64,000 nucleotides of DNA from NCBI RefSeq assembly GCF_046524175.1, contig NZ_JBEFZF010000002.1:107304-171303 (forward strand), read 5' to 3'. The position numbers and the translations under genes were made by a program. This document shows, in pieces, positions 9,786 to 33,636 of this stretch (within the stretch, counting starts at the first letter, position 1; each line of letters begins with the position of its first letter). The notes under the pieces were generated by a model. That model saw only the letters and a list, made by a program, of their open reading frames with translations, searched no databases and had not been told where the DNA came from. This DNA comes from Spongiivirga sp. MCCC 1A20706 (GTDB taxonomy: Bacteria > Bacteroidota > Bacteroidia > Flavobacteriales > Flavobacteriaceae).

Positions 9786-9794
9786 CATTATTAA

Positions 9795-9828
9795 AAATCC
9801 AACCTATTAGTTAGGTTGGATTTTTTTG
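9795..9828 (+). terminator. Rho-independent terminator after the tRNA
   Basis: atccaacctattagttaggttggat hairpin followed by ttttttt. Confidence 0.75.
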
Positions 9829-13810: not shown

Positions 13811-13845
13811 AATATTTAATATTATTTGGAAGTATGCGTTTAAGT

Positions 13846-15330
13846 TTATTTAAAATCCAAAATCCGAATACACTCATTAATTCTTCCTTCAAGAACTTTC
13901 TTATGTTGCGGATATCCAATATAAAGTTGTTTAGCTATTTCTGCTTTTTCCTTTGCTAACCTGAGACTTTTATTTTTGTTGGATCTCATATAAAGTAAGG
14001 CAAAAGCTAAATAAGAATCTGCTAACCTAGCCGCAGAGTTGACATCAGGTCTTTTGCTATTAATATTAGTTAGAATTTCTATAGCATCTTCGTAAAAAGT
14101 TTTTGCGTTTTTATAGTCATTTAGATCAGTATGAATCATACCTAAAAAATGTAGATTATTTGCATATCCAACCTTATCAAACGTGCTTCTGAGAGGTAAT
14201 ATTTGCTTAAAATATTTGTCAGATTGTAAAAAAAACGATTTAGCTTTCTTAAATTCCTTATTTCCTTTAATTACAATAGCGTAACTAGATAATATTGCAG
14301 CGTATCTTAATTTGTATATATATTCAGATTTATTGGGATAATGATTTAGTATTTTTTCTGCTTTTTTAAAATATACATCTACTAATTCATAATTTTTCTG
14401 ATGACCAAAATGATTTATTGAAGATATAATAGTTGTCATTAGTTCACTAAAATATGTGTTGTTTTTTTTGTAGGCTTTTTCTTTTAGTTTTAGTGCATTT
14501 AGAAGATAATCTTCCTTATTTGTAGCAATTTCAAATTCTATATTTGGGTTATTTAAAAGCGCAAATATATTTTGATTTATTGCCCCTAATTCCGCATCAT
14601 ATCCTTTATTATTATTTTCTTTTTTTAATTTATTATAAATATCTATCGCCTTTTGATAATTATGGAACGATTTTTCACCTAAACCTTTTGTCCTGTAAAA
14701 TATACCTAAATCCCTTAAGGTTTCCGCTTCATTTGCTAAGAGAAAGTTATCCTTATTAGAAATTTTACTAAAGGATGCTAGGGATTTTTTAAGATATGGT
14801 TCAGGATTTCTTTTAGTAGAAGCTAACCCTTGTAGAAATATATGTCCAATATAAGAGTTAGCGATTGCAATAATTTTATGGTCAAAAACTTCCTTTAGAA
14901 CAACTTCAAAAGAACTCAAAGACTCATTATACTCTTCTGAGATAAAATGAGCTATTGCCTTTTGAGTATTTGAAGCATTTTTGGATTTGGATTTTTCGAG
15001 AAATAACTTCAATCCTTTTATATCTAAGTTATATTGATTTTGTATATATATTTCAAATGCTTCATCTGGGTTGTTTATATCTACATCATTTTCTTTGAAA
15101 TATCTTGCTAACCCTAGAAGGGGCTTTAATTCTTTAAGAGTTTTGTCTTGTTCTTGGTTTTTTGTAATACCATTATTTCGATATAAAAGTCCCGCAACAG
15201 CTGCAATTACCACACAAATAAAAATAATCCAACTTAACATTTTTTGATTTTTGCTTGAATTCATAGACACAAATCTAAATAAATTGTTATTAAAATAGGC
15301 ATACAATTCGGTTGCCAGAAAAGTTGACAA
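13846..15330 (-). CDS. TPR-repeat protein with N-terminal membrane anchor
   Basis: TM WIIFICVVIAAVAGLLY followed by multiple degenerate 34-aa TPR-like repeats (..AIDIYNKL.., ..AEKILNHY..). Confidence 0.6.
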   Translation of the reverse strand: MSTFLATELYAYFNNNLFRFVSMNSSKNQKMLSWIIFICVVIAAVAGLLYRNNGITKNQEQDKTLKELKPLLGLARYFKENDVDINNPDEAFEIYIQNQYNLDIKGLKLFLEKSKSKNASNTQKAIAHFISEEYNESLSSFEVVLKEVFDHKIIAIANSYIGHIFLQGLASTKRNPEPYLKKSLASFSKISNKDNFLLANEAETLRDLGIFYRTKGLGEKSFHNYQKAIDIYNKLKKENNNKGYDAELGAINQNIFALLNNPNIEFEIATNKEDYLLNALKLKEKAYKKNNTYFSELMTTIISSINHFGHQKNYELVDVYFKKAEKILNHYPNKSEYIYKLRYAAILSSYAIVIKGNKEFKKAKSFFLQSDKYFKQILPLRSTFDKVGYANNLHFLGMIHTDLNDYKNAKTFYEDAIEILTNINSKRPDVNSAARLADSYLAFALLYMRSNKNKSLRLAKEKAEIAKQLYIGYPQHKKVLEGRINECIRILDFK

Positions 15331-15361: not shown

Positions 15362-15392
15362 GGTCCATGGTTCGAGCCCATGTGGGACCACA
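15362..15392 (+). repeat. Direct repeat of the last 30 nt of tRNA-Met (attachment-site-like scar), followed by a diverged copy of the tRNA terminator
   Basis: ggtccatggttcgagcccatgtgggaccac is identical to 9757-9786. A further ~45 nt is near-identical, including the terminator hairpin at 15400-15432. Confidence 0.85.
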
Positions 15393-15399
15393 CTATTAA

Positions 15400-15432
15400 A
15401 AATCCAATCTAACTCAATAGATTGGATTTTTT
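15400..15432 (+). terminator. Rho-independent terminator (diverged copy of the tRNA terminator)
   Basis: atccaatctaactcaatagattggat hairpin followed by tttttt. Confidence 0.6.
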
Positions 15433-15642: not shown

Positions 15643-17589
15643 TTATTGTCCTATTTGGTTAAATGATGATGTGTCGATTGCATTAGGGTTAGAGGCTTCA
15701 ATTTGAAAAATAGCATCGTTAAAATCGTTGTCTCCGTTAGGTACTGAAATGTCTTCGAATGCAATGACCGTAGACTGACAGGTTTGATCGTAAAACAGAA
15801 TACTTTGCTGTCGTCCGCTTAAATTAAAATTGATGTCGGTGTGTTGAGAATAATATCCATCAGTGATACTTCCGTTTCTCCATCCGTTGGCGATCAGGAA
15901 AAATCCAACTACCGTACCTGATTCAAAACTACCTAGTAATCGCATTGTATTACCTCGAATGAGTCCGCCACCGGATCCTTGTGCCGAAGCATTTGGAAAT
16001 ATGACAGTTTTATCCAGGTCATTTACACTTGCCGGAGGATTATCCTGATTATAGGTATAGTAGCCTAGCACATTTTTATACCCTGCGCCTTCATCAATAA
16101 ATGTTAAGTATAGATCGGTTTCTTCACTTATATATAATTCTTTTACTGGGTTTGTAAAGTACTCGGGATGTGCTTGCATCGCATTTTGTCGTTCCGGAAG
16201 AACATTTTGGTAGATATTAGGGAGTAATGTACTGCACACTTCAACATCTTCTTCCATTCCGTCTGGCACTCCTTTTTCATCATAGGTAGTAACCGTTTTG
16301 TATTCGTCCTTTTCTCTTTTGCGCAGAATTTTGAATCCGCCACCACCTTTGGCAACAAAAACCCATTCACCATCAGCCATGATAAAGTTAGCAGAGGCGT
16401 CATCTTCCTGCATATCCCAGAAAAATACCGGATTTATTTCTTCGCCTTCGACCGTAGGGTGCTTCGCAATAGCAATACCGTCTGCACCATTGGCCATATA
16501 GATATAGTCATTATCGGTAGTAATTCCGTTTGTATTACCAACAACTAGCATTAACCCTTCAGATTCATTTAAGATCGTGCCAGAATTGACATCAACATTG
16601 GCCAAACCATACTTGCCCTTAGCGACATATAGTTGATTACTATGTATTGGGGAAAATTCCATCGTAGATTTACCGCGATATGTTTCTACTACATTTTGAT
16701 GAAAAATGCTGCCTATAGGAAAGCTAGTGGTATTCAATGCATCATTTACATCGGCAACCCTTATAAAAGCCTCATCTCCTGTGATCAGACTTGCTACTTT
16801 CGAGTTGTCGGAATTAAGCGCCAAGTACTTCGCATTGGCATATACTTCGTGGTCTAAGGCATTGAGATTATCCTTATTTAGAATAACGGTACCACCATGT
16901 GTTTTTCCCGAAGTGATATAGATATAATTATCAGTAGAAGCAATACCATTTGCTGAGGCAGAAACTCCTGAGTTTTCAAATACATTTGACAAATTAACCC
17001 GTTTGAAATCGGAGTTGAACTGCCCATTTGTTGTTGTGAGTTCAAATAATTGAGCTCCGTGCACATTATCCGACATGGCAGTCCAAATTTTCCGCAGACT
17101 ATTTGATCCTTCAAAGTCAGACGTCAACGCATTGACATCGGCATTATTAAAGTAAACCTGACTTATTATTTCAGGAAAATTAGGATTGGAAAGATCAATG
17201 ATTTCAACCGCACCCTTGTGTAAATCACCTTGCTTGTGATAGCTTACATATGCCTTGTCGTCAGCCAAGGTAATATGTGTCGCGCTTAGGGTAAACCCTC
17301 CAAGAACCAGAGGGTCTACTTCTGCAACATGCTCCCAGAAGTAATTTTCTTGCGCACCATTTACTTTAGCGGTTGAAAATTTTCCGGTCTTTGTTTTTAC
17401 AACTGGTTTAATAGTGGCAGTTCTATTAATAAAACGCAGCCGTTTTGTTAACTCATTTCTGTCATTGTTTACCGAAAAAGGATTTTCATCGATTGGTGCT
17501 TCAATTAATTCAGCTGTATTTTCTTCTGTACTACAACTTAGGAATCCTATAATAAGGACTATTTTAAATAGTATTTTTACTGTCTTCAT
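15643..17589 (-). CDS. Lipoprotein with LVIVD-type beta-propeller repeats and a C-terminal DUF4114-like region
   Basis: Lipobox IGFLSCS. Repeated ..YIYITSG.., ..YIYMANGADGIAIAK.. motifs. C-terminal GFFLIANGW...DGYYSQ...NDFNDAIFQIE. Confidence 0.55.
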   Translation of the reverse strand: MKTVKILFKIVLIIGFLSCSTEENTAELIEAPIDENPFSVNNDRNELTKRLRFINRTATIKPVVKTKTGKFSTAKVNGAQENYFWEHVAEVDPLVLGGFTLSATHITLADDKAYVSYHKQGDLHKGAVEIIDLSNPNFPEIISQVYFNNADVNALTSDFEGSNSLRKIWTAMSDNVHGAQLFELTTTNGQFNSDFKRVNLSNVFENSGVSASANGIASTDNYIYITSGKTHGGTVILNKDNLNALDHEVYANAKYLALNSDNSKVASLITGDEAFIRVADVNDALNTTSFPIGSIFHQNVVETYRGKSTMEFSPIHSNQLYVAKGKYGLANVDVNSGTILNESEGLMLVVGNTNGITTDNDYIYMANGADGIAIAKHPTVEGEEINPVFFWDMQEDDASANFIMADGEWVFVAKGGGGFKILRKREKDEYKTVTTYDEKGVPDGMEEDVEVCSTLLPNIYQNVLPERQNAMQAHPEYFTNPVKELYISEETDLYLTFIDEGAGYKNVLGYYTYNQDNPPASVNDLDKTVIFPNASAQGSGGGLIRGNTMRLLGSFESGTVVGFFLIANGWRNGSITDGYYSQHTDINFNLSGRQQSILFYDQTCQSTVIAFEDISVPNGDNDFNDAIFQIEASNPNAIDTSSFNQIGQ

Positions 17590-17595
17590 AGTTAT

Positions 17596-17820
17596 TTAAT
17601 TTGAGGTATTTTGTATATGACGAATCATGGTTTGTTGTGCTTTTACTTGTGCCTTTTTCAATGTTGGTTGAAAATCGGTTTCGTCTCTTGAAACACGAAT
17701 CATTTGATTGCCTTTGTATACAATCCACCAAAATTTTGAAGGTTTTAAAAATTCAGCTTTAAGGTGATATCCGTCTCCTGTTTTGACGTGTTTCCAGTCT
17801 TTATTTCCTGTCCATTGCAT
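17596..17820 (-). CDS. Small hypothetical protein (74 aa), immediately upstream of the lipoprotein gene
   Basis: ORF only. Trp/Lys-rich. No recognisable motif. Confidence 0.35.
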   Translation of the reverse strand: MQWTGNKDWKHVKTGDGYHLKAEFLKPSKFWWIVYKGNQMIRVSRDETDFQPTLKKAQVKAQQTMIRHIQNTSN

Positions 17821-17936
17821 AATACTTGGGGTTTAATTACAATGATAAATTTAGCGTTAGATTACCCTTTAGTGAGTTGTTTTTCGGCGGGTGGACGTTT
17901 GCTGTAGATGGATGGAAAAAAGAAGAGGATTATTGG

Positions 17937-19256
17937 TTATAAGCCTGCTTTCTTTGCTTGGATAGAAGATTTGTAAGGGTTCCATGTATCTTCAAAAGAC
18001 CGCTTAAAAAAGAATTCTTTATAGTAGGCAGCTGTACGAACGATTCTTAAGTATGTGCCAGTATAAATGGTCATCAAAGAAACATATGGCCATAAGTACA
18101 GTTCTTCTTTTCTGCGTTCTGAAAAAACGTAAATACTACACATTTGCACATAGCTCATTACAAAATATAGGGTAAAGTTCATGGGAATGACAAATTGCAG
18201 TTGACTGCTGTAATTAACAATAATATCAATAATGTAAAACCACCATAGTATATCAAGTACTACATTGTAAAATACATTTTCGGCAAGCGAAAAGAAGGTC
18301 GACCAGTTGAAGTTAGCGTTGGGGAAGTATACATCTTTGTGTTTGCGAACTCTAAATCGTATGATCGATTTATCCCAGCGCAATCGTTGTTTGGTTAATA
18401 CTTTAAATTTGGAAGGCGCATTGGTTAAGCAAATAGCACTGGGCTCAAAACAAACTTTATAACCTGATTTTCTAATTTTAACGGTAATGTCTCCGTCTAA
18501 ACCGGGGCCAATATCCCAACCTCCTATAGCATCAATGACATCTGCTCTAAAAGCGCCAAATGCTCCTGAAATAATTTTATAAATTCCTAAATATGAGGTG
18601 ATGATTCGGCCTACTGAAACGGTTTTTAGATACTCAATTGCCTGCAATCTGGCGCATAAACTTTCCTTATAATTTCTAACTTTTACATTGCCACCCACGG
18701 CTGCAATTTTTTCGTTCATGTAAAAAGGAACCAATACATTTTCGATAGCATCATAATCAAAAGAACAATCGGCGTCAAGATGTACAATGTATTTGCCGCT
18801 ACTATATCGCAACGCTAAATTGGCAGCAGAGGCTTTACCTCCTCGCATTTCGTTTCTAATAAATTTATCGATTAAACCTAGGCGTTCTAAGTTTTTACCG
18901 ATAATTGGGGTGTCATCGTCAGAGCCATCATCAACAATAATGAGTTCAAAGTTTGAAAAAGTTTGTTCTGCTAATGATTTTGTTAATTTGTAAAGATGTT
19001 TTCCTTCGTTCTTACCCGGAATTATAACTGAAACAAATGGATTTTCAAGACGTAATAATTGCCTGGCTTTTTCGAATTTTTTAGCGCGCTTTTTTCTGTT
19101 AATCCAAAATATTAATGCCACTATATAATCAATAATGATGTATCGGGTAAACTCAAACAAAATGAAATACCAAAAAACCCGAATGAATTTTGGTAACCCT
19201 ACTTCATTCCAATAGTTAATATATTCAGGTACTATATTTTCTAATTGTAATGACAT
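17937..19256 (-). CDS. Processive family-2 glycosyltransferase (membrane-embedded polysaccharide synthase; PgaC/NodC/HasA-like)
   Basis: VSVIIPGKNEG...LIIVDDGSDD (DxD) ...QRLRW (QxxRW processivity motif). TM helices at both ends. 439 aa. Confidence 0.85.
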   Translation of the reverse strand: MSLQLENIVPEYINYWNEVGLPKFIRVFWYFILFEFTRYIIIDYIVALIFWINRKKRAKKFEKARQLLRLENPFVSVIIPGKNEGKHLYKLTKSLAEQTFSNFELIIVDDGSDDDTPIIGKNLERLGLIDKFIRNEMRGGKASAANLALRYSSGKYIVHLDADCSFDYDAIENVLVPFYMNEKIAAVGGNVKVRNYKESLCARLQAIEYLKTVSVGRIITSYLGIYKIISGAFGAFRADVIDAIGGWDIGPGLDGDITVKIRKSGYKVCFEPSAICLTNAPSKFKVLTKQRLRWDKSIIRFRVRKHKDVYFPNANFNWSTFFSLAENVFYNVVLDILWWFYIIDIIVNYSSQLQFVIPMNFTLYFVMSYVQMCSIYVFSERRKEELYLWPYVSLMTIYTGTYLRIVRTAAYYKEFFFKRSFEDTWNPYKSSIQAKKAGL

Positions 19257-19260
19257 GCAA

Positions 19261-20643
19261 TTAGTTGAATTGTTTTAAAATATCATCAATTGTTTCACCT
19301 GATTTAGGCTGATGTGTTTGGATATTAATAGCTAACAACTGCTCTTGTAAATTATCACCTAGAAGTTTTCCTAAGTTATATTGAATGGTTTCAAGGCGTT
19401 GAGGTAGTGGTTCTTTTGTGTCGGGCAGTAATAGGTAATATGAATTATAAGCGTCTGCGGCCAAAACATCACTTGGTAATAAATAGGATTGAATAATTGT
19501 TCCTATTTCCTTTACTAATGCCTTTTTTGTGTCATCATCAAAATGACCTAAGCGGTTGTTTTCAAAACGGATAGAAGCCATTTGACTTGTTGCTTTACTT
19601 ATAGTTATTCTTTTTAACTCTTGTCCTGCAATAATTTTAAACAAAGACAAGGTCATTATGCCATCGGGAGAAATAGATATTTGGCTGTTTTGTTGCACAT
19701 TTCCTAGTAACCATTCTTCTCCTAACGATGTGATACTGTATGTGCCAATGGTCTTTTTTATTAAGGCGGAAAGTTCATTTTCCGTTTCGCAATCAATGCA
19801 TTTAGCCACCATATTCGGTGTTTGAAATTCATGGTTACAACAGTTGCAGTTATACATGGATGATGGCTTGTCATAATCGATACCAATATGCCTTAATTGC
19901 TTATCGCACTTAGGGCAAGATAATCCCTCTTTTGTTTTAAAGTCTTTTTCCGGGGCAACATGGGCACAAACGAAGTGATGTACAATGTCTTGTGCTTTGA
20001 TATCGATACTATCACACTTAGGGCAGGTTTCAATAAAATTCAAGTAATTACCGTGACAATTTTTACATAAATGAACATGGTCATGTAGTTTCATCGTCAG
20101 ATGACCAGATGCCACGCTTTTTTCAAGCATTAATAATTTAGGCAGTACTTCCTCCTTTTTATAAAAAAGATCAATTAATGGAAGGATATACCCAATTAAG
20201 CTTGTTCTATCTGCAATCGGTTCTATTGGATGATTTCTGGTGAAAAGAAAAGCCAAGATTTTGTATTGCAATTGGTCATCGTGGGCTCCATTTTTTGTAA
20301 GCGATATCCTTTTAAGACGCTTGCTGATCACGTCAATACGGTTGACAGCTATTGGGAGCTGATCGATATCAATATATCCATCAGTATGTATGCCAACAGT
20401 CTTATGTAATTGGCAAGTAGCGTTTATAAAAATGGGTTTTAACGCAATTGCCAAATCGGCGTTTTTGCGAATATGAAAGACCAAGTCTGTTGCATGTTCT
20501 TTGTTTTCCGTGTTGATAATAACAGCATCGATATAGGTTAAAGGCTCATGCAGCAGCACCGATAGGTGATCAACTTTTAGCATGGTGTAACCTGAGAACT
20601 GAATCTTATTGGAACGGTCGTTATGTCGTAGAACATTTAACAT
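19261..20643 (-). CDS. Cys-rich protein with five Cys pairs (zinc-ribbon-like); possible TackOD1-like output/regulatory domain
   Basis: CKNC...CPKC...CPKC...CNCC...CIDC within about 90 aa, flanked by non-membrane domains. 4-nt spacing to the GT2 gene. Confidence 0.6.
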   Translation of the reverse strand: MLNVLRHNDRSNKIQFSGYTMLKVDHLSVLLHEPLTYIDAVIINTENKEHATDLVFHIRKNADLAIALKPIFINATCQLHKTVGIHTDGYIDIDQLPIAVNRIDVISKRLKRISLTKNGAHDDQLQYKILAFLFTRNHPIEPIADRTSLIGYILPLIDLFYKKEEVLPKLLMLEKSVASGHLTMKLHDHVHLCKNCHGNYLNFIETCPKCDSIDIKAQDIVHHFVCAHVAPEKDFKTKEGLSCPKCDKQLRHIGIDYDKPSSMYNCNCCNHEFQTPNMVAKCIDCETENELSALIKKTIGTYSITSLGEEWLLGNVQQNSQISISPDGIMTLSLFKIIAGQELKRITISKATSQMASIRFENNRLGHFDDDTKKALVKEIGTIIQSYLLPSDVLAADAYNSYYLLLPDTKEPLPQRLETIQYNLGKLLGDNLQEQLLAINIQTHQPKSGETIDDILKQFN

Positions 20644-20676
20644 GACTTGGTCTATTGTCAGGGGACTAGTTTAAAA

Positions 20677-22041
20677 TTAAAGCGACATATATACGCTTGC
20701 AGGGATTTTATCTTTCATATTCCCTTTAATATCAAAGATGATGGCGTCGTCTTTTGCATTTTTCAACAAATCGAAATAGCCTAAGTCTTGATAATCTGTA
20801 TGATCAACGGCTAGCACGATCGCATCAAAACGTTCAGAAGTGCTTTTAGTAAGTTCAATCCCATAATGCTGCTTTACTTCATCAGCATTAGCCATATAAT
20901 CTTGTACGCAAACTTGAAATCCTTTTTCTTTTAGAGCAAGGCAAAGTTCAGCAGCTTTTGAGTTACGAATATCATTGACGTTTTCTTTAAAGGTGATTCC
21001 CTTTACCAGAATAGTGTGTTGCTTTTTTTGCAAACCGTTTCTATATACTCGTTTACTAATTTCGCTTACAATATGTGGAACCATACTTTCATTGACTTTG
21101 CGAACTTGTTCAAGAAGTTTGGGTTCGATTTTATGCTGCTTTGCTTTATGAATTAGATAATAAGGATCTACACCAATACAATGACCTCCGACTAAACCTG
21201 GATAGTAGTGATGAAAATTCCACTTACTTCCTGCAGCTTCTAAAACTTCTTTTGTATTAATATCCAATTTGTTAAATATCTGAGAAAGCTCATTCATTAA
21301 ACCGATGTTTACATCTCGTTGAATATTTTCAACAACTTTTGCGGCTTCTGCAACTCGAATGGTAGCTGCCCGGTATACGCCCGCTTTCACAGCACTTTCG
21401 TAAACATCAGCAATAACTTCTAAAGCTTCTGGAGTACTTCCGGAAACGATTTTCTTAATACTTGTAAACGTATGTTGTGTATCCCCTGGATTAATTCGCT
21501 CAGGAGAGTATCCGATGGTAAAGTCTTCATTATATTTTAGGCGTGAAATACGCTCTAAAATGGGTACGCACACTTCTTCTGTACAGCCCGGATATACGGT
21601 AGATTCGAAAACAACACAATCGCCCTTTTTTAAATGACGAGCTACGGTAGCAGTAGCAGCCATTATCGGTCTTAGGTTCGGTTTTTTTAAATGATCTATA
21701 GGAGAAGGTACCGCTACAATATAAAACTTTGCGCTAGCCAGTACCTTATCGTTTGCACTAAAAGCAATGTCTTTTCCTTTAAATTCGTCAGCGGCTAGTT
21801 CGCCACAGGGATCTTGATGTTGTGCAATTTGAACAACTTTTTCTTCGCTAATATCAAAACCTACTACCTTAAAGTGAGCAGCCATATGTACCGCTAAAGG
21901 AAGCCCTACATATCCCAGACCAACGACAGCGATTTGTTCTTCTTTGTTTTTTAGTTTTTTGAAAAGATCACTTTGCTTGTAACCAAGTGTAGGTTGATCA
22001 AAATCATTTACATGTAGGTTGTATTTTAATTGTGTGTTCAT
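20677..22041 (-). CDS. UDP-N-acetyl-hexosamine 6-dehydrogenase (TviB/WbpO/Cap5O family nucleotide-sugar dehydrogenase)
   Basis: IAVVGLGYVGLPLAV Rossmann motif typical of the UDP-HexNAc dehydrogenase subfamily. GGHCIGVDPYY catalytic-Cys region. Confidence 0.85.
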   Translation of the reverse strand: MNTQLKYNLHVNDFDQPTLGYKQSDLFKKLKNKEEQIAVVGLGYVGLPLAVHMAAHFKVVGFDISEEKVVQIAQHQDPCGELAADEFKGKDIAFSANDKVLASAKFYIVAVPSPIDHLKKPNLRPIMAATATVARHLKKGDCVVFESTVYPGCTEEVCVPILERISRLKYNEDFTIGYSPERINPGDTQHTFTSIKKIVSGSTPEALEVIADVYESAVKAGVYRAATIRVAEAAKVVENIQRDVNIGLMNELSQIFNKLDINTKEVLEAAGSKWNFHHYYPGLVGGHCIGVDPYYLIHKAKQHKIEPKLLEQVRKVNESMVPHIVSEISKRVYRNGLQKKQHTILVKGITFKENVNDIRNSKAAELCLALKEKGFQVCVQDYMANADEVKQHYGIELTKSTSERFDAIVLAVDHTDYQDLGYFDLLKNAKDDAIIFDIKGNMKDKIPASVYMSL

Positions 22042-22169
22042 AATAGTAAGATTTAATGGGTTATAATTTCTGATACTAAATTAGTTTTGATATTGTTGTA
22101 AAGAGCTGCTTTTTAGTTTGATAGAAGACTCTTGTAGATGAATGGTCGTTATCCTTAGACGGATGGTTT

Positions 22170-23222
22170 TTAGCGGAAAGTCTTGTTTAATGAAATGGAA
22201 ACGTTTAACATATGATAAGCTCCCCAGCGATCTTTCTGTTCCGCTCGCAAAGGGATTATTTCTGCAAGAATATTTCGTTCTGTGGGCTCATACTTTTTCT
22301 GGAATTCTATAGGAGCCGTATAAGTGGATACATATAATTTATTAATAACCCCTTTTTCTTTTGTTTGATCCGGAAATAGTATATCGACGATGTCCCCCTC
22401 GTCAAGATGTGCCGCGTCTTTAAGATCAAAATATCCTTTTATAAATACTTTTTCGGTGTTGTGTATGGTCATTACCCGCTCTCCTTTATAACAAGACTCT
22501 TCTCTATTTTTGTGAATTTGACCAATAATACCATTAATAGGAGATAGGTAACTGCTTCTATGGCTGGAATAACCACCAGTACTTAGGTCGAAAATAGTAG
22601 GTTGTGTTGCGTGATTATTGTTGTTTCTTAATAGGGAAGTCTGGGAAAGCAAAAAACGTATCTCGTTATTAAGCAATGAAATCTTGTTTTTGGCAAGTAG
22701 AATTTGATTCCTAATCCCTTCTAATTTTTCTTTGGTATACACATCTAATAACACCAGTTTTATCATCTTTTCTAGTTGTTGATCTAACTGATTTGTATGA
22801 TTGTATAGGTTGTTTCGTTCTATTCTCTTTTGGGCTATTTTGAAAGCTAAATCCTGCAAGGCATCATTTTTTTTCTCGTTTTTCCCCTCAGATCGTAATA
22901 AGACAGCTGCTTCATTGTCAAACTCATTTTGTTGATATGAAAATAGGTTCTGATCTATTTGTACGGAATCACCTTCTTGAACAGATAGTTGTTTAATCCG
23001 AATATCTTGTGTAAAATTTACATCTATTTTATCCATAACAACCATACCATTTGCTTTAACGATAGCCACTTTGGTATATAGATATTTTGCTAAGAAACCA
23101 AAGGCGATTAATACAAGAATAAAATATACTAACCTATCGAAGTTGAATTTCTTCTTCTTCACTACCGGTTCTTTAAGGGTTCGAATCTTTGCGGTTTCTT
23201 TTTGATAAGAAAATGTCCTCAT
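22170..23222 (-). CDS. HlyD-family periplasmic adaptor (membrane fusion protein)
   Basis: N-terminal TM LVYFILVLIAFGFLA, long coiled coil, C-terminal beta-barrel-like region. About 350 aa. Confidence 0.75.
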   Translation of the reverse strand: MRTFSYQKETAKIRTLKEPVVKKKKFNFDRLVYFILVLIAFGFLAKYLYTKVAIVKANGMVVMDKIDVNFTQDIRIKQLSVQEGDSVQIDQNLFSYQQNEFDNEAAVLLRSEGKNEKKNDALQDLAFKIAQKRIERNNLYNHTNQLDQQLEKMIKLVLLDVYTKEKLEGIRNQILLAKNKISLLNNEIRFLLSQTSLLRNNNNHATQPTIFDLSTGGYSSHRSSYLSPINGIIGQIHKNREESCYKGERVMTIHNTEKVFIKGYFDLKDAAHLDEGDIVDILFPDQTKEKGVINKLYVSTYTAPIEFQKKYEPTERNILAEIIPLRAEQKDRWGAYHMLNVSISLNKTFR

Positions 23223-23226
23223 GTTC

Positions 23227-24753
23227 TTATTTTTTAGAGATTAATTCTAACTCGTTTGAAATCAAGTCTTTTAAAAAAACAGCATTAGGAGTTGGTTGTT
23301 CAAATGAGACCTGGATGCCTTCTTTCTTCAGTAGGTTTTCAAAAGCACCATCTTGAAAGGTCATCTGAATACGTTGTATGTTTTTCGCTTTTAGAAATTG
23401 TAGTTGTAGTCTTTGCGAAAAAGAACTTTTTGTAATTACCACAGGGTCTAAACTAATACCTGTGTTGAATGCAACAGATGAGATAAATTGATGAATATTG
23501 GATTCCGGACTAAGCTCGATAATATGAGAAACAATCGTATACAATTGTTTTTTTAGCTGTAATACATTTTCTATAATATCATATTGCTCCTTAGTATACT
23601 GTAACAAAAGTAAACCGCAGTTATAGGTATTTAGTTCTTCCTTTATAATTTGGGTGATGGTTTTTCGCTGTTGGATGATCAACCATTTTTTATGAAGGGT
23701 GTATAGATCGTTAATTTTTTCTTGATGTGCATTTAAATAAGTGACAAGCTGATTCTGTTTACCCACTAATCGATCATCTTCTTGAGCAGTAGCTTGTTGT
23801 ATTTTTGTTTGAATAATTTTTTTCCGATTGTTAAAACGAATAGGAGCACTGAATCTGGCACCAATTAAAGGGCTACTAAATTGCCTCGTTATGGTCTCCG
23901 TCCAGTTATAATTAGCATAAATCGAAAACTTAATGTCTCTGAATGCTCGATTTTTTAGCTTAATAATGTGTTGCTTCCATATTTTTTTGTCTTCGTTTTT
24001 AGGCGATTTGAAAATATCATCTTTATTTAAATCAATCTTTATTAATGGAAGTTTCTCATTTAAGAACAATGCAGGAATACTATCTGCTACATGATCTTGA
24101 TAAAATTGTATTTGCTTAGATTGTTCTCTACTGTTATATAACTCATTAGATATTTTGATAACCTCTTCTCTTTTGATCATTTTTTGAGAGTAGAGTTCAT
24201 TTAAAATGTCAAAGTATTTTTCTAGAAATTTACTTTTGCTTGTATAATGGTTTAAGAGTTCTTGATTAATAGCATAATTGTAATGCAACCGAAATTGGCG
24301 CCGCCAAATAATTTTGTTTTCTCGCTCTAAAGCGTCATTCAATAGTTGTTTTTCGAGTAGCGCGGTTGTTGCTTTCGTTCTATTTGCAAAGAATCCGCCC
24401 TTTAATATATCCCATTCTAATTCCGCATTAAATCTAGATACCGTTATGTTATTTGTTTCATCATCAAGAACTCCTTGGAAATTGCGATAGCTATTAGCTT
24501 TTATTTGCAAGCCCCAGTCTTTTTTGTATTCATTTGATTCTAAATCTTTTATTCTTATTTCATGCCATGTAGGACTAATGGAATCAAGCATTTTGAAAAT
24601 ATCAAAGTTGATATCTTCATATGAATAAGGAAAATGAAGGAGCGTGTTTGCATCCTGATAAATAACATGACTCTTCATCAGCAAAGAGTCAATTTCTTGG
24701 GGTTTAGCTAATGTAGAGACTAGTAAAAGTGCTATGAAAATTGGGGCTTTCAT
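23227..24753 (-). CDS. TolC-like outer-membrane factor
   Basis: Signal peptide. Repeated helix/strand architecture with ILKGGFFANRTKA, compare the TolC LFDGG motif. Confidence 0.55.
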   Translation of the reverse strand: MKAPIFIALLLVSTLAKPQEIDSLLMKSHVIYQDANTLLHFPYSYEDINFDIFKMLDSISPTWHEIRIKDLESNEYKKDWGLQIKANSYRNFQGVLDDETNNITVSRFNAELEWDILKGGFFANRTKATTALLEKQLLNDALERENKIIWRRQFRLHYNYAINQELLNHYTSKSKFLEKYFDILNELYSQKMIKREEVIKISNELYNSREQSKQIQFYQDHVADSIPALFLNEKLPLIKIDLNKDDIFKSPKNEDKKIWKQHIIKLKNRAFRDIKFSIYANYNWTETITRQFSSPLIGARFSAPIRFNNRKKIIQTKIQQATAQEDDRLVGKQNQLVTYLNAHQEKINDLYTLHKKWLIIQQRKTITQIIKEELNTYNCGLLLLQYTKEQYDIIENVLQLKKQLYTIVSHIIELSPESNIHQFISSVAFNTGISLDPVVITKSSFSQRLQLQFLKAKNIQRIQMTFQDGAFENLLKKEGIQVSFEQPTPNAVFLKDLISNELELISKK

Positions 24754-24810
24754 ACAGCCAAACTAACCCCATAAAGTTGTTTATATCATATTAATCGATA
24801 GAAGGGTAAA

Positions 24811-24858
24811 TTAGTGTCGACGAGAGGAGTTTTTAGTTCGGTGATTAGAAATTATATT
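24811..24858. promoter_or_regulatory. Conserved upstream box (ttagtgtcgacga-N-agtttt-N-tcg-N-ga-taNaaatta), copy 1, 60-100 nt upstream of the polysaccharide operon start
   Basis: 13/13 identity plus extended similarity to 28656-28700 upstream of the H-NOX operon. Confidence 0.5.
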
Positions 24859-24940
24859 TCAAATATTTAGGGATCAAGAGGTAGACTGCTCCCTTCCTTT
24901 GAGGGAAGGGTGTTCAATTACATTTTAATATCCTGAAGAG

Positions 24941-24983
24941 AACACCCCTCTATATCTCTCCTCAAGGGGAGACTTTAATATGG
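24941..24983. repeat. Hairpin repeat copy 2, nested in a highly structured region at 24880-24990
   Basis: Same 43-nt element as 9488-9530. Adjacent stems cccttcc/ggaaggg and gggtgttc/gaacaccc. Confidence 0.6.
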
Positions 24984-25010
24984 CGCTTACAAGGGTATTG
25001 AAAACGTATT

Positions 25011-25712
25011 TTACAACAAATTCAACCGCTTTCTAAGTTCTGGACGATTTGCACGACTCACAGGTATGATATCTTGTTTAATAAGAACGCTATTATCTTC
25101 GATATCGATAATTTTATTGGTATTAATTACGTATGATCGATGTACTTTTAGGAATAGCGTATCAGGTAGTTTTTCTTCTATTTTCTTTAAAGTCGAATGA
25201 ACAATGTAATTTTTTTGTTCAGTTTTGATATTGATATAATCCCCTTTGGCTTCGACTAAATAAATATCAGGAATGTTTATTTTAACTAAACGACGATCAA
25301 TATTCACAAAGAGGTCATTGTTATTATCTTGTTTCTCGACTGAGGTTTTTTCTTCACTTATGGTTGTTTGCTCAGCTTTTTCAATCGCCTTTTTAAACCG
25401 CAAGAGTTCAATAGGTTTTAGTAAATAGTCAACAATACAATCATATTCAAAAGCTTGTATGGCAAAATTGGCATCAGAAGTTGTTAGTATTATTTTAGGA
25501 GGGGATTTTAATGTCTGAATAAAATCAAAACCCGTAAAATCGGGCATGTGAATATCGAGAAAAATCAGATCGATCTCATTTTGATTTAGGAACTTTATGG
25601 CTTCTATAGCATTTGAAAATTCAGATACCACCTTTAATTGTGATATTTGATCACATAAATGGTTAATAATTGCTCTAGCGGTTGCTTCATCATCAATAAT
25701 TATACAATTCAT
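25011..25712 (-). CDS. Response regulator, receiver (REC) + LytTR DNA-binding domain
   Basis: MNCIIIDDE...LIFLDIHMPDFTGFDF (REC). C-terminal LVEAKGDYINIKTEQKNYIVHSTLKKIE...VHRSYVIN (LytTR). Confidence 0.85.
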   Translation of the reverse strand: MNCIIIDDEATARAIINHLCDQISQLKVVSEFSNAIEAIKFLNQNEIDLIFLDIHMPDFTGFDFIQTLKSPPKIILTTSDANFAIQAFEYDCIVDYLLKPIELLRFKKAIEKAEQTTISEEKTSVEKQDNNNDLFVNIDRRLVKINIPDIYLVEAKGDYINIKTEQKNYIVHSTLKKIEEKLPDTLFLKVHRSYVINTNKIIDIEDNSVLIKQDIIPVSRANRPELRKRLNLL

Positions 25713-25720
25713 AGTGTAGG

Positions 25721-26041
25721 TTAAAGTGTATTTAGGTAGTTTTCTATGGTATTTAATAACTTTCTAAAGCGATCATTCAAGGAGGTATTTTCATTTTTAA
25801 GGTCGTTTTCGAAGTTTTTGGCCAACACGTAACCTTTTTGCAAACCAAGAATATTGATTTTATGCTTTAGTTTGTGTACCTGTTCTGACGCTTTGTTATA
25901 TTCAGATGATTGCATATAAATAGCAAACTCAGCACGTTCTTCAGGAAATTCATTTTTCATAATATTAATGAGCTTTGTCTTGATACCTAAATCTCCTGCA
26001 GCAAGCTCATTAATATAATTAAGATTGGGTGTTTCACTCAT
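25721..26041 (-). CDS. Histidine phosphotransfer (Hpt) protein
   Basis: 106 aa. HKLKHKINILGL fits the Hpt HxLKGxxxxLG phospho-His motif. Overlaps the kinase stop by 4 nt. Confidence 0.7.
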   Translation of the reverse strand: MSETPNLNYINELAAGDLGIKTKLINIMKNEFPEERAEFAIYMQSSEYNKASEQVHKLKHKINILGLQKGYVLAKNFENDLKNENTSLNDRFRKLLNTIENYLNTL

Positions 26042-27630
26042 TTTTTAATGGTAAAGTAAAAAGTACTGCCTTCACCCACTTGCGAAGTAAGCCAAATTCT
26101 ACCACCATAAAAATCGACAATTTTTTTGACAATTGACAATCCTATTCCAGTTGAATTATCCTCATTTTCAAGACTTTGAAAAACATTAAAGATCTTTTCG
26201 AAATACTTTTTTTCAACACCTATACCGTTATCTTCAATAGAAAACTCCCAAAAACGTTCTTTTTCTTCACAGCTAATTTTGACAACGCCCTTTTGTTTGT
26301 CATTGTATTTGATGGCATTACTTATTAAGTTTTGAAAGAGCTGTTGCAGTCTAAACTCATCCCCTTGAACAGTTGGTAGCGTATTCGTTATTTTTACTGA
26401 TATATGCTCTGGTACATAAATGACCTCAATAACATCCTGTACAATCTGGTTGAGGTTAATACTATAAATTTTCTTTTCAATTCGGTCTACACTGGCATAC
26501 TCTAGCACTCCATTAATTAGTTGGTCCATTTTATCTACTTTTTTATGCAACATGTCAAAAGTAGTATTGGCTTTTTTATCGAAGACATCAGCATAGTCTT
26601 CTTGTAACCAAGAAATTAGGCTACTAATACTTCTAAGAGGTGATTTTAGATCGTGCGAAACGATGTGAGCATAATCGTTTAGCTCTTGGTTACTTTTTTC
26701 CAGATCGCTTAACAGCTGTTTTTCCTTTAGTTGTTGTTTAAGCTGTTCGCTCATGTCTTCAATAAGTGCAACCTGATACTTTATATTTCCCAAATCATTT
26801 CGTACGGCACTTACACTTGTTTTGGCCGTTAAGATGCCTCCGTCTTTTTTACGGTATTTTTTTTGAATGGTGAAATTATCAATATCTCCATTATTTAGGG
26901 CTTCCATTTTTTCTTTAGAAGCATTGTATTCATCTTTGACAGAAATGTCTTTAACCTGCATTGTATTTAGCTCATCAGCAGTAAACCCTAATAACTGTTG
27001 AAAAGCACTGTTTGTTTGTAAAATTTTTCCATGTTGTGTTAAGGCAATCCCTAAAGAAGAGTTTTCTACAATAACACTTAACTGTTTTTTTTGCTCTTCA
27101 AAAACTTGTTGATTTTTAACCTGCTCTGTAGTATCTCGTACGATACCTTGTGCGGCTATGGGCTCTTTTTTAGCGTTGAAGACTAAACTGGCATTAATTT
27201 GCACATTTCTCACCTCCCGTTGTTTTGTATATACCCTGGCATTGTAGTTGGTAAAAGCACCTTTTTTCACTAGTTCTTGAAAAGACTTCATCGCATAAGG
27301 GATATCTTGCTTGTAGATAAGACCAACAACGTTTAAAGGTTCTTTGTCAATATCATACCCGAACAGTGTTTTTGCAGCATCATTCATTTTAAGGACATCA
27401 CCAGATAAGTTCATAACCACATAGGCGTCTACAATATTTTCAAAAACACCTTGCAACTCTGAAGTTCGTTCGCTTACTAAACTTTCGAGCTTTTCATTGG
27501 CCGTTCGGAGCTCTGTTGTTAATTGAAATAGATCAGAGGCTTTTTCTTCAAGTATTTTTTCAGCTTGTTTCCTAGCATTCTTTTCTCGGGCTAAAGCACG
27601 TTTTAATATGTCTGTTTCTTTGGACATCAA
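26038..27630 (-). CDS. Soluble PAS-domain sensor histidine kinase
   Basis: HisKA H-box SHDLKSPLRSI. HATPase N/G boxes (NAIKYN..., DNGIGV, GTGIGLSIVKK). PAS-like repeats. No TM helix. Confidence 0.85.
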   Translation of the reverse strand: MMSKETDILKRALAREKNARKQAEKILEEKASDLFQLTTELRTANEKLESLVSERTSELQGVFENIVDAYVVMNLSGDVLKMNDAAKTLFGYDIDKEPLNVVGLIYKQDIPYAMKSFQELVKKGAFTNYNARVYTKQREVRNVQINASLVFNAKKEPIAAQGIVRDTTEQVKNQQVFEEQKKQLSVIVENSSLGIALTQHGKILQTNSAFQQLLGFTADELNTMQVKDISVKDEYNASKEKMEALNNGDIDNFTIQKKYRKKDGGILTAKTSVSAVRNDLGNIKYQVALIEDMSEQLKQQLKEKQLLSDLEKSNQELNDYAHIVSHDLKSPLRSISSLISWLQEDYADVFDKKANTTFDMLHKKVDKMDQLINGVLEYASVDRIEKKIYSINLNQIVQDVIEVIYVPEHISVKITNTLPTVQGDEFRLQQLFQNLISNAIKYNDKQKGVVKISCEEKERFWEFSIEDNGIGVEKKYFEKIFNVFQSLENEDNSTGIGLSIVKKIVDFYGGRIWLTSQVGEGSTFYFTIKK

Positions 27631-28166
27631 AGTCTTTTAATATTAAACCTTACTTCGGTTCCGTCTTTGGCTATATTTTCCGTATCGATACTACCTTTTT
27701 CATCAAAATGAAGAAATGTTTTGCGCATTAATCCAAGCCCAAACTGATGTAAAGCCCTGTTCGATCGGTAGATCATTATGAGGGAATTTTCTTTTTTCTC
27801 AATAATTTCAAAAGTAGGTAATTCGGCATCAGGATATATTTTCCGCACCTCTACATGAATGTGATTTTCGATAGAAGAGAGCATTTCCAAAGGATCATCA
27901 TATAAAGCGATAAATTGAGGGTAATCTCTTTTAAGAACATCAAAAAAATGTTCTCCATAAACACAGAGTAGTTGATCAACTGCAATGGAAGTATTTTTAC
28001 TTAGATTTGATACTAAACTTAGCATTTCTGCGAAATCATAAGTGCCGACAGCGGTATATATTCCTTTTGATTTAAGATCAGATTCCTGAATGAGTTGATC
28101 GACCATTTCCAATCCGAATTTATCTTCAACAAGTTCTAAAAACTCTGTAAATACAATTCCTTTCAT
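27627..28166 (-). CDS. hnoX: H-NOX (haem nitric oxide/oxygen-binding) sensor domain protein
   Basis: Starts MKGIVF. Proximal His at residue 102 (ENHIH) and the Y133-x-S135-x-R137 haem-propionate motif (IYRSNR) at the canonical spacing. 4-nt overlap with the kinase gene. Confidence 0.85.
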   Translation of the reverse strand: MKGIVFTEFLELVEDKFGLEMVDQLIQESDLKSKGIYTAVGTYDFAEMLSLVSNLSKNTSIAVDQLLCVYGEHFFDVLKRDYPQFIALYDDPLEMLSSIENHIHVEVRKIYPDAELPTFEIIEKKENSLIMIYRSNRALHQFGLGLMRKTFLHFDEKGSIDTENIAKDGTEVRFNIKRL

Positions 28167-28577
28167 TTATAATTTAATTAGTTCGTTATTTGACCAATAC
28201 GCAACAGCAATTTTTATTTTTTCCTTGTAGTCTTCATAACGTAAAGGTTTTAATATGTAGCCAGCAATTCCGATGGTATAGCATTCTAAAATATCCGTTC
28301 GGTTATTTGATGTGGTAAGTATCATAGCCGGAATATATTTTAGGGCTGCGTTCTTTTTAAGAATTTTCAGAAATTCTGTTCCGTTCATCTTAGGCATGTT
28401 AAGATCTAAAAAGATCACATCGGGGGTTTTGTTTTCTTCTTGTAAAATAGTAAGAGCCTCTTCACCATTTTTTGATAGCGTTAGATTGTATTTTATATTC
28501 ATGCTATCCAGCACTCTTTTAAATTTAATAGTTTCTATTTCATCATCTTCAATTAATAAGATCGACAGTGTTTTCAT
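28167..28577 (-). CDS. Single-domain CheY-like response regulator (receiver only)
   Basis: LLIEDDE...VIFLDLNMPKMNG...ILTTS...GIAGYILKP. Confidence 0.85.
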   Translation of the reverse strand: MKTLSILLIEDDEIETIKFKRVLDSMNIKYNLTLSKNGEEALTILQEENKTPDVIFLDLNMPKMNGTEFLKILKKNAALKYIPAMILTTSNNRTDILECYTIGIAGYILKPLRYEDYKEKIKIAVAYWSNNELIKL

Positions 28578-28655
28578 TTTTAAATAGACATAAGGTTTTT
28601 ATAAAGATGTCTATTGTCTTTATAATTTGACATTAAATTTCGGTGAATAGATGCT

Positions 28656-28700
28656 TTAGTGTCGACGAATGGTAGTTTTCAATCGCCGAATAAAATTACG
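28656..28700. promoter_or_regulatory. Conserved upstream box copy 2, 80-120 nt upstream of the H-NOX operon start
   Basis: See 24811-24858. Confidence 0.5.
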
Positions 28701-28780: not shown

Positions 28781-29698
28781 TTAGAGTACCCACTTAAAGT
28801 ATTTATCCTTTATAACATCCTTTTCTTCTTGTAAGTAATCAAGAAATGCTTCAGCTACAGGTGAGAGCTTCTTTTGTTTTAACCACACCAAATTCCATTG
28901 AGTATGTATGGGTAAACCTTTGTAAGGGATCACTTTTATAAGTCCCATATCTATAGCGTTTCGTATACCGATCATAGGCATAATTGAGTATCCTAAGCCC
29001 GCTATAACTGCTTGTTTGAGTGCTTCGTTACTGGTTAGTTCGATTTTCTTTGAGACAGGAAAGTTCTTTCCTTGAATAAATGTTTCCATCGCATTTCTGG
29101 TAGCCGATCCTGGTTCTCTATACAATAAAGGTTGTTCATTAAATATTAACGAGGACGTTCCTTTTCTATTTCGTTCAAGTTCGCTACCCCCAACTAAGTA
29201 CAAACTGTTTTTTAAAAGCGGAAACCGATTTAACTCAATATGATCGGGCAAAACAGATACTAATGCAAAGTCCACTAGATTGTTCTCTAAATCATTAACA
29301 ACTTTAAGCTTATTGGCAACATCCATGCTAAAATCGATACCGCTGTGTTTTTGCACAAAGCCTGATAGGTAATACGGCATAACATACTTTCCGGTAGAAA
29401 CTACAGAAATCGATAATTTTCCTGCGAGTTTTCCTTGATATTGTTTGGTTTTATGATCCAGACTAGAAACATCATTCAAAATTTTCTTTGCTAAATGGGC
29501 TATTTCCTCTCCAAATGAAGTGACGTATAGCTTTCTTCCTATTACCTCGGTTAAGGGAAAAGGAAACTGGTCTTGAAATTTTTTTAGTTGTATCGATACA
29601 GCAGGCTGTGTTAAAAACAGTGCTTCTGAAGCCTTGGTAATACTCTTTTTATTTACCACTTCAATGAATACTTGTAGCTGGTGCAACGTATAATTCAT
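28781..29698 (-). CDS. LysR-family transcriptional regulator
   Basis: N-terminal HTH LHQLQVFIEVVNKKSITKASEALFLTQPAVSIQLKKFQ. LysR substrate-binding fold length. Confidence 0.85.
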   Translation of the reverse strand: MNYTLHQLQVFIEVVNKKSITKASEALFLTQPAVSIQLKKFQDQFPFPLTEVIGRKLYVTSFGEEIAHLAKKILNDVSSLDHKTKQYQGKLAGKLSISVVSTGKYVMPYYLSGFVQKHSGIDFSMDVANKLKVVNDLENNLVDFALVSVLPDHIELNRFPLLKNSLYLVGGSELERNRKGTSSLIFNEQPLLYREPGSATRNAMETFIQGKNFPVSKKIELTSNEALKQAVIAGLGYSIMPMIGIRNAIDMGLIKVIPYKGLPIHTQWNLVWLKQKKLSPVAEAFLDYLQEEKDVIKDKYFKWVL

Positions 29699-32666: not shown

Positions 32667-33151
32667 CTTGACAAAGACATGCGCTGTAACGGAGGCTATG
32701 TCATATTTTTGGGCGTTTCCATGATACTTGTTTAATTGCTCGATCATGGTCGGGCCTGCCTGTCTGCAGACAGGCTTTCGCCGGTCGCTTTTTTAATTTA
32801 AAAACAGCATAAATAACCCATCTTTCCATCGCGGAAATCTCATTTTTTGTATAATCGCTACAATCAGTATTTAATAGTTGAGTTGGCAGCTGATATCAAA
32901 TTAAAACCCTATATCGTTTGCAAAGCCGCATACTAAAAAGTAATTGCTTAAACCATCAATAAAATGGCTATTTCAGGCATTTTCAAGACTGTTTTTAAGG
33001 TGCTTTAACCTAAAAAACCGAGTTACAAATGCTGTTCTTTTTTGCTGTTTTATGCCCAGCGTGGCTTGGAGACCAGTTTTACAAGATGGTCAGCTTAAGT
33101 TGCCATATCCTTAATATGGTGCGTTTACCAATTTCGCCATTCCGATTTTTC

Positions 33152-33295
33152 GGAAGCAGGACTCGAACCTGCAAGTCTTCAATTGTTCTAACCAAACTGA
33201 ACTATCTCAAAAATGGATTGAGAGTGGGATTCGAACCCACGACCTATTGACAGTGACTGTTAACTACAGTCTAGGTATCAAGCCTCGTTGCATAT
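33152..33295 (-). other. Two tandem tRNA-like 3' fragments (T-arm plus acceptor 3' strand) without matching 5' acceptor strands
   Basis: On the minus strand: gcagg-ttcgagt-cctgc and gtggg-ttcgaat-cccac T-arms. The second also has a gactg-tagttaa-cagtc anticodon-like hairpin. No complementary 5' acceptor strand found by eye. Confidence 0.4.
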
Positions 33296-33561: not shown

Positions 33562-33636
33562 TGGTATCTATGGGGAATCGAACCCGTTCATCTTAGAAGA
33601 TATACTTCTCGTGCTAGCCAGTACACTATAGATACC
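33562..33636 (-). pseudogene. tRNA-like element with perfect 7-bp acceptor stem but aberrant anticodon loop and T-arm (probable tRNA pseudogene)
   Basis: Minus strand: ggtatct...agatacc acceptor, D-stem gtgt/gcac. Anticodon stem agaag/cttct with a 5-nt loop tatat (or 4-bp stem with loop gtATAtc). T-stem has only 3 GC pairs. Confidence 0.4.

Follow-up and report, generated by a model that had tools for sequence, protein, structure and literature searches.

Tandem direct repeats as a probable LytTR-type operator linking an H-NOX phosphorelay to polysaccharide genes in Spongiivirga

Two neighboring minus-strand operons in a 64,000-nucleotide stretch of Spongiivirga sp. MCCC 1A20706 (Flavobacteriaceae; hereafter the window) raise the question of whether they answer to the same regulator: one encodes a sensor relay with an H-NOX protein, a histidine kinase and a response regulator with a LytTR DNA-binding domain (REC-LytTR), the other a polysaccharide cluster, and the same 13-nucleotide box stands upstream of both. 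A sequence-only reading had taken this box, together with the DNA beside it, as a single 45-nt element bound by a common regulator. Our analysis indicates that the box is best understood as the best-conserved half-site of a tandem direct repeat, and comparison across related genomes makes it likely that this repeat is a LytTR-family operator of an autoregulated regulon, which couples the H-NOX phosphorelay to matrix and polysaccharide genes. The coordinates of the features are collected in Table 1.

The box (TTAGTGTCGACGA on the plus strand, TCGTCGACACTAA read along the genes) occurs without mismatch at 24811-24823 and 28656-28668, and allowing up to two mismatches uncovers no other copy in the window. 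In both cases it lies upstream of the first gene of a minus-strand operon, at 58 nt (ATG at 24753) and 79 nt (ATG at 28577). The argument that such identity is unlikely by chance fails for the box taken by itself, as the window contains 144 distinct same-strand exact repeats of at least 13 bases against 93 +/- 9 in dinucleotide shuffles. The 30-45 nt beside the box, described as clearly related, are identical at 19 of 45 positions in an ungapped alignment, and their likeness is due to one extra weak half-site 21 bp away (TTTATTCGGCGA, 8.2 bits; TCTAATCACCGA, 6.5 bits); the limits drawn for the 45-nt element were wrong, and it is built from half-sites of roughly 19 nt. The initial observation was partly confirmed, being real but incomplete and weak in its statistical basis: both copies of the shared element stand, and two more sites (22128-22167 and 17877-17916) had been missed.

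A scan of genomes with the REC-LytTR protein as query yielded 80 Flavobacteriaceae loci (e.g., from Winogradskyella, Algibacter, Aquimarina, Dokdonia, Tenacibaculum and Kordia), the orthologue of Spongiivirga citrea being the closest at 91% identity and the others falling at 71-77%; all site counts given here cover these loci (~1.2 Mb) and the 64-kb window. Upstream of the operon, 44 of the 80 loci display the 8-mer TCGTCGAC on the gene strand, and alignment of these 44 on the 8-mer reveals conservation in the unselected flanks (CCAT ahead of the core, ACTTA behind it) and two additional copies, one (ccATTCrnCGACACTTAA) at exactly 21 bp downstream and a weaker third (TaAaCGAA) after another 21 bp; two loci contain a pair of perfect copies set exactly 21 bp from each other. 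This half-site, whose core is the box, has the gene-strand consensus aCCATTCGTCGACACTTA and is iterated in direct orientation every 21 bp; its conserved core CCATTCGTCGAC(AC) is present two to three times. A period of 21 bp corresponds to two helical turns.

For counting, a 19-nt position weight matrix (PWM) was built from the second copies only, in order to limit circularity, and pairs of half-sites 20-22 bp apart (hereafter dimers) were scored; a 56-nt matrix of the whole element was dropped in favor of this pair scoring, as it missed one of the window's sites (site B; 22-bp spacing, different register). The 80 loci contain 183 dimers, which are confined to the gene strand, and shuffled sequences yield none. 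Not one of the 183 falls inside a long open reading frame (ORF), though long ORFs cover 72% of the bases. At least one dimer is found in 75 of the 80 loci, and the period is 21 bp in 172 of the dimers, 22 bp in 6 and 20 bp in 5. Sixty-nine dimers precede the first gene (REC) of the REC/H-NOX/kinase/Hpt/REC-LytTR operon, with a median distance of 75 nt from dimer end to ATG. The element is kept at this orthologous position in dozens of genera, and loci below the threshold (e.g., Polaribacter) show recognizable variants (CAGTTCATCGACAC) at the same place.

The same scan of the window returned five matches in four clusters (sites A to D), against a mean of 0.03 in shuffles; all four clusters belong to the minus strand and lie between the genes of a single 11-kb cluster, and five of the six top single half-sites window-wide fall inside them. 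Site A precedes the REC/H-NOX operon, site B the gene for a 508-aa secreted protein that opens the polysaccharide cluster, site C the sugar-nucleotide dehydrogenase gene and site D the 74-aa and DUF4114 genes. The half-sites are spaced by 21 or 22 bp, and half-site scores at the position of a third copy are negative at sites B, C and D. Each site has counterparts elsewhere: site A in 69 related loci; site B in S. citrea (locus L001, 7702-7741) and Tenacibaculum (L201, 4306-4345); site C in S. citrea (L001, 10385-10424), in a Seonamhaeicola metagenome-assembled genome (MAG; L028, 10490-10529), in Tenacibaculum (L201, 7112-7151) and in a Balneola MAG (L205, 7125-7164); and site D in S. citrea (L001, 14636-14675) and Flavicella (L202, 11338-11377).

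The placement of the repeats relative to a probable promoter is likewise constrained. In most loci, a TA(N1-2)TTT box stands 31 nt ahead of the ATG, at an offset of 83-84 relative to the first half-site, and such a box is found at offsets 70-100 in 54 of 68 loci against 21 in shuffles. It resembles the -7 boxes of Flavobacterium (PMC9723704), which in F. psychrophilum read TAnnTTTG or TAnnTTGY and lie at -12 to -5, with a median 5′ untranslated region (UTR) of 24 nt (PMC9723704). If the conserved box is read as such a -7 box, the half-site centers would fall near -87, -66 and -45, positions typical of an activator. The promoters in the window have a shorter distance to the ATG, which is 96 nt at sites A, B and D (measured in the case of B from the upstream half-site), and the motif that we tentatively assign as the -7-like box of site A, CATCTTTA, recurs in Spongiivirga and Aquimarina promoters. 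A scan of the window for sigma-70 promoters, which are the wrong type for Bacteroidota, gave 19 matches against 18.7 expected.

Which protein might read these sites is indicated by gene linkage. The REC-LytTR gene adjoins the sites in all 80 loci (75 with dimers), and no other DNA-binding gene accompanies them in every case. We also traced homologues of the polysaccharide cluster's family 2 glycosyltransferase (GT2) synthase to their contigs (L201-L207) as a separate test of the linkage, and here too REC-LytTR and the sites co-occur in L201, L202, L204 and L205. The polysaccharide cluster directly follows the REC/H-NOX/kinase/Hpt/REC-LytTR operon in Tenacibaculum, Flavicella and Urechidicola and adjoins the relay in L001, L028, L201, L202, L204 and L205, with dimers at positions equivalent to A, B and C in Tenacibaculum, A and D in Flavicella and A in Urechidicola. 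In the Balneola MAG (L205, 450-11311), the cluster follows a relay of PAS/GAF kinase, REC, Hpt and REC-LytTR that features no H-NOX gene, and dimers (ACCATTCACCGACAG..TCCATTCGTCGATAA) stand before the first cluster gene and the dehydrogenase gene. The cluster occurs without an adjacent relay in Ascidiimonas and a Prolixibacteraceae genome, and the two loci lacking an adjacent relay (L203 and L206) have no dimers. Given this pattern, including Balneola, the motif tracks the pair of regulator and cluster more closely than it tracks H-NOX, and the presence of the module without H-NOX in Balneola suggests that regulator and cluster came together before the H-NOX input or independently of it.

In genera where the relay does not adjoin the polysaccharide cluster, dimers stand before genes for DUF6923 proteins of about 865 aa secreted by the type IX secretion system (22 loci), STAS-domain proteins of about 93 aa (16 loci) and sugar-nucleotide dehydrogenases (8 loci), as well as for an OEP-family protein, a Polysacc_synt_3 flippase, a GT1 glycosyltransferase, a Wzz/GNVR protein and a CAP-domain protein. 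Extracellular and envelope functions predominate among the targets, which fits a matrix regulon. The ~93-aa STAS proteins are of the anti-sigma-antagonist type and have a dimer upstream in L008, L030 (e.g., 13834-14112) and 14 other loci, a hint that the regulon feeds into a partner-switching module.

Conservation of this kind could also arise if the sites were a genuine operator read by a different protein, and candidates are at hand: a second LytTR-domain protein (451 aa, 9869-11224) is encoded about 7 kb beyond the cluster, a LysR gene (28781-29698) lies directly upstream of site A, and an unlinked factor is conceivable. We consider this unlikely, since the LysR and 451-aa LytTR genes are absent from the other 80 site-bearing loci and from L201-L205, in contrast to REC-LytTR, the one DNA-binding gene constantly found beside the sites; moreover, the gene for the 451-aa protein sits in a 5.6-kb insert that is flanked on both sides by a duplicated 44-bp stretch with a tRNA-Met 3′ end, and was probably acquired recently. 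LysR proteins recognize inverted T-N11-A motifs rather than 21-bp direct repeats, which further counts against a LysR binder. Both proteins were rejected as the binder on the ground that neither is conserved beside the sites. The presence of STAS-domain proteins, which are known from partner-switching control of sigma factors, among the downstream genes raises the thought that the conserved block is no activator site at all but an extracytoplasmic function (ECF)-type sigma promoter, with its AAC- and CGTC-like elements as -35 and -10. That is very improbable: one -35/-10 pair leaves it unexplained why the element is repeated in tandem two or three times at a strict period of 21 bp, and it was on this period that the ECF-type promoter was rejected. 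The distance from AAC in one copy to CGTC in the next, as read from the consensus, is about 22 nt, which is too long for ECF promoters, where a shorter -35/-10 spacing is expected; the repeats are followed, at a constant distance, by a conserved -7-like box of its own, and no sigma factor gene is linked to them in the related loci.

Least probable of all, to the point of being nearly negligible, is that the copies reflect chance similarity, a dispersed repeat of the REP or MITE type or a structured RNA in the 5′ UTR. Sharing of 13-mers is common in the window, as the 144 repeats against 93 expected indicate, and the 14-mer core does arise by chance in unrelated GC-rich metagenome contigs: a metagenome scan with CCATTCGTCGACAC, which serves as a negative control, gave at least 126 matches, nearly all in GC-rich unrelated DNA. 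None of the at least 126 chance matches listed has a partner half-site. The window's four dimer clusters, against 0.03 expected, are confined to one gene cluster. Across genera, box and repeat are conserved while the sequence further upstream varies by locus. The sequence-only reading had proposed checking for a dispersed repeat; in the 64 kb and about 1.2 Mb of loci, no repeat in two orientations was found, and a dispersed repeat is contradicted by copies that are all sense-oriented, intergenic and upstream of genes. A cis-regulatory RNA, be it a riboswitch or a leader, is excluded by the lack of conserved pairing (RNAalifold on 30 upstream regions, 0 conserved pairs) and of an Rfam match at the sites, the window yielding only tRNAs at the Rfam gathering thresholds.

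We therefore return to REC-LytTR as the probable binder, and posit the following course of events. The H-NOX protein would modulate the PAS histidine kinase, presumably with nitric oxide (NO) as the signal, and phosphate would flow from the kinase to the stand-alone REC, on to the Hpt-like protein and finally to REC-LytTR. Phosphorylated REC-LytTR would then occupy the repeats immediately before the promoter, with two or three molecules arranged head to tail, most likely activating rather than repressing its own operon through site A, the strongest, to give feedback, and most likely also activating three units of the neighboring, synthase-type exopolysaccharide cluster through the weaker sites B, C and D. 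The suggestion, already made from the window's sequence, that the box is a common regulatory site through which REC-LytTR controls its own operon and the polysaccharide genes is supported by the layout, position and linkage of the sites; all computational tests that were run agree with it, and the comparative evidence favors it well.

Several points weigh against this interpretation. Both the binding of the sites by REC-LytTR and their regulation are predictions from comparison, and no link from H-NOX to a LytTR protein was found in the literature searched. The site counts are confined to 64 kb and about 1.2 Mb of loci. The sites of the PWM alignment were chosen for their TCGTCGAC core, which makes first-half-site scores circular, a problem that the second-copy matrix limits. 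Two of the window's sites score weakly, C with a dimer sum of 16.0 and B with one strong half-site only, and the uncertain -7 assignment in the window's own promoters leaves the start distance there unfixed. Ascidiimonas keeps degenerate half-sites although it has no adjacent relay, and Flavobacteriaceae UJ101 (L207, 1-11308), with a similar relay and cluster, has no PWM match. The resemblance of the half-site core to the AlgR consensus, described below, may be a coincidence. As an observation on UJ101, the intergenic regions of its locus share TTTATCAC-like words, which may reflect a diverged LytTR regulator with altered specificity.

Among known systems, the operators of LytTR regulators consist of two 9-11-nt repeats with 11-13 nt between them (PMC4847170), which corresponds to a period of about 21 bp like the one described here; the repeats of AgrA lie just upstream of P2 and P3 (PMC4227749), and autoactivation through repeats about 10 bp upstream of the -35 is common in the family (PMC6193735). 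The sites described here share with operators of the AgrA, ComE, PlnC and YpdB (BtsR) type the direct repeats and, if REC-LytTR binds them as predicted, would also share the control of the own operon and, on the -7 reading, the promoter-proximal position (PMC4847170, PMC4227749). They differ from these in half-site sequence, in having up to three half-sites, in the Bacteroidota host with its -33/-7 promoters, and in the input, which is an H-NOX phosphorelay with a separate REC and Hpt-like protein rather than a peptide- or pyruvate-sensing membrane kinase. HdrR and BrsR of Streptococcus mutans exert positive feedback on their own operons through direct repeats, which are 11-13 bp apart and ~10 bp upstream of the -35 (PMC6193735); these regulators have no receiver domain and are held by a membrane inhibitor protein, whereas the regulator here would be the output of a phosphorelay.

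A further parallel is AlgR of Pseudomonas aeruginosa, also a LytTR response regulator over an exopolysaccharide operon (algD). The consensus core CCATTCGTC and the AlgR consensus CCGTTCGTC have 8 of their 9 positions in common (PMC4064291), and in the window site A reads CCATTCGTC and site B CCTCTCGTC. At algD, the AlgR sites are single 9-mers, far upstream (-470 and -394) and at -45, in either orientation (PMC4064291), in contrast to the tandem and orientation-locked, apparently promoter-proximal copies 21 bp apart found here, and the polysaccharide genes at stake are PgaC-like and TviB-like rather than alg genes. Because AlgR sites are single, distant and orientation-independent, the likeness is one of resemblance and not of membership.

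On the H-NOX side, the relay of REC, H-NOX, PAS kinase, Hpt and REC-LytTR sets the system apart from that of HnoC, which is not known to be a LytTR protein, and its predicted targets include polysaccharide and secreted-protein genes. HnoC is nonetheless the nearest H-NOX analogue, as it forms a transcriptional feedback loop of the kind proposed here: in Shewanella oneidensis, an H-NOX-controlled kinase phosphorylates the regulator of H-NOX signaling genes (PMC8738867). HnoC is a repressor released upon phosphorylation (PMC8738867), whereas we propose activation.

More tentatively, and with slightly less than even confidence, we suggest that an NO-responsive H-NOX phosphorelay with a LytTR output is a conserved master switch of matrix production in marine Flavobacteriaceae, including Tenacibaculum, with targets that differ by genus: an uncharacterized PgaC-like/TackOD1 exopolysaccharide system in some, and secreted DUF6923 proteins together with Wzx/Wzz-type genes in others. 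If true, this would be, within the literature searched, the first regulon to connect NO with transcription in Bacteroidota and the first H-NOX pathway with a LytTR output, adding a LytTR transcription factor to the known H-NOX outputs (cyclic di-GMP enzymes, quorum-sensing relays and HnoC). It would also provide a direct transcriptional route from a diatomic-gas sensor to polysaccharides and surface proteins in these abundant and understudied bacteria. What began as a coincidence of two copies becomes a testable regulon with a defined operator, a named candidate regulator and targets conserved over many genera, and the position matrix can be used for regulon prediction in any complete flavobacterial genome.

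All genes of this region are on the minus strand, and their map (Table 1) derives from Pfam and NCBIfam. The H-NOX protein, which keeps the proximal histidine and the YxSxR motif (ENHIHVEV and YRSNR in the alignment), matches the Kordia algicida H-NOX (PDB 6BDE/6BDD) with an E-value of 5e-76 (PMC7356049), and its gene is part of a signaling operon in which the kinase gene overlaps it by 4 nt. The partner kinase is a soluble PAS kinase encoded with H-NOX and not a membrane kinase of the AlgZ type. The best NCBIfam matches of REC-LytTR are BtsR and LytR, both below the cut-off, and a look-up of its exact sequence returned no record. Two G+C-rich hairpins between the LytTR gene and site B (24889-24972) probably mark the boundary between the two transcription units; as no U-run comes after either of them on the minus strand, they are candidate terminators only.

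Table 1. Positions of the predicted sites and of the relay and cluster genes in the window
Feature	Coordinates	Strand	Remarks
Site A	28633-28694	minus	upstream of REC/H-NOX operon (ATG 28577); three half-sites, spacings 21 and 22 bp
Site A, half-site 1	28676-28694	minus	TTTATTCGGCGATTGAAAA, 8.2 bits
Site A, half-site 2	28655-28673	minus	ACCATTCGTCGACACTAAA, 24.6 bits; contains the box
Site A, half-site 3	28633-28651	minus	TCTATTCACCGAAATTTAA, 18.1 bits
-7-like promoter box, site A	28602-28609	minus	CATCTTTA; tentative, low confidence
Site B	24810-24849	minus	upstream of 508-aa first polysaccharide-cluster gene (ATG 24753); spacing 21 bp
Site B, half-site 1	24831-24849	minus	TCTAATCACCGAACTAAAA, 6.5 bits
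Site B, half-site 2	24810-24828	minus	TCCTCTCGTCGACACTAAT, 16.1 bits; contains the box
Site C	22128-22167	minus	just past HlyD-like gene stop, upstream of sugar-nucleotide dehydrogenase gene (ATG 22041)
Site C, half-sites	22128-22167	minus	ACCATCCGTCTAAGGATAA, 12.2 bits, and ACCATTCATCTACAAGAGT, 3.8 bits, 21 bp apart
Site D	17877-17916	minus	past GT2 synthase stop (17937), upstream of 74-aa ORF (ATG 17820) and DUF4114 gene
Site D, half-sites	17877-17916	minus	TCCATCCATCTACAGCAAA, 18.0 bits, and TCCACCCGCCGAAAAACAA, 7.3 bits, 21 bp apart
REC-LytTR response regulator	25011-25712	minus	proposed site binder; Pfam Response_reg 1.8e-18, LytTR 1e-21
Rest of sensor operon (REC to Hpt-like)	25721-28577	minus	gene order kept in related loci
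Stand-alone REC	28167-28577	minus	Pfam
H-NOX	27627-28166	minus	Pfam HNOB 4e-40
PAS-PAS histidine kinase	26038-27630	minus	Pfam
106-aa Hpt-like protein	25721-26041	minus	weak Hpt match (Pfam)
G+C-rich hairpins (two)	about 24889-24911 and 24955-24972		between LytTR gene and site B
Target cluster	15643-24753	minus	Pfam/NCBIfam
508-aa secreted protein without family	23227-24753	minus	target cluster
HlyD-like adaptor	22170-23222	minus	target cluster
TviB-like sugar-nucleotide dehydrogenase	20677-22041	minus	target cluster
TackOD1 protein	19261-20643	minus	target cluster
PgaC/IcaA-like GT2 synthase	17937-19256	minus	target cluster
74-aa ORF	17596-17820	minus	target cluster
DUF4114 protein	15643-17589	minus	target cluster

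Within the target cluster, the TackOD1 gene stands between the dehydrogenase and the PgaC-like GT2 gene in the window as well as in L201-L206, a set that spans Flavobacteriaceae, Balneola and Prolixibacteraceae, and in L207 a DUF4114 gene separates TackOD1 from the dehydrogenase. TackOD1 is a cysteine-rich domain of unknown function first described as an output domain of archaeal response regulators (PMC5847659), and its role in a bacterial polysaccharide system appears to be uncharacterized.

The insert with the second LytTR protein is delimited by a direct repeat of 44 bp (9757-9800 and 15362-15405, 43/44 identical), which comprises the 3′ end of the tRNA-Met gene (9712-9786) and 14 nt beyond it. 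The 5.6-kb segment within encodes the 451-aa protein with its C-terminal LytTR domain, family-less proteins of 552 and 195 aa and a TPR protein; Pfam finds no integrase domain in its four ORFs of at least 90 aa, and the repeat looks like the att (attachment site) duplication of an integrated element. Of two further and conflicting tRNA calls on the minus strand, either or both of which may be false or degenerate, one is a weak Rfam match (34 bits) at 33148-33211, and ARAGORN instead places a tRNA-Tyr with the uncommon anticodon ATA at 33562-33636.

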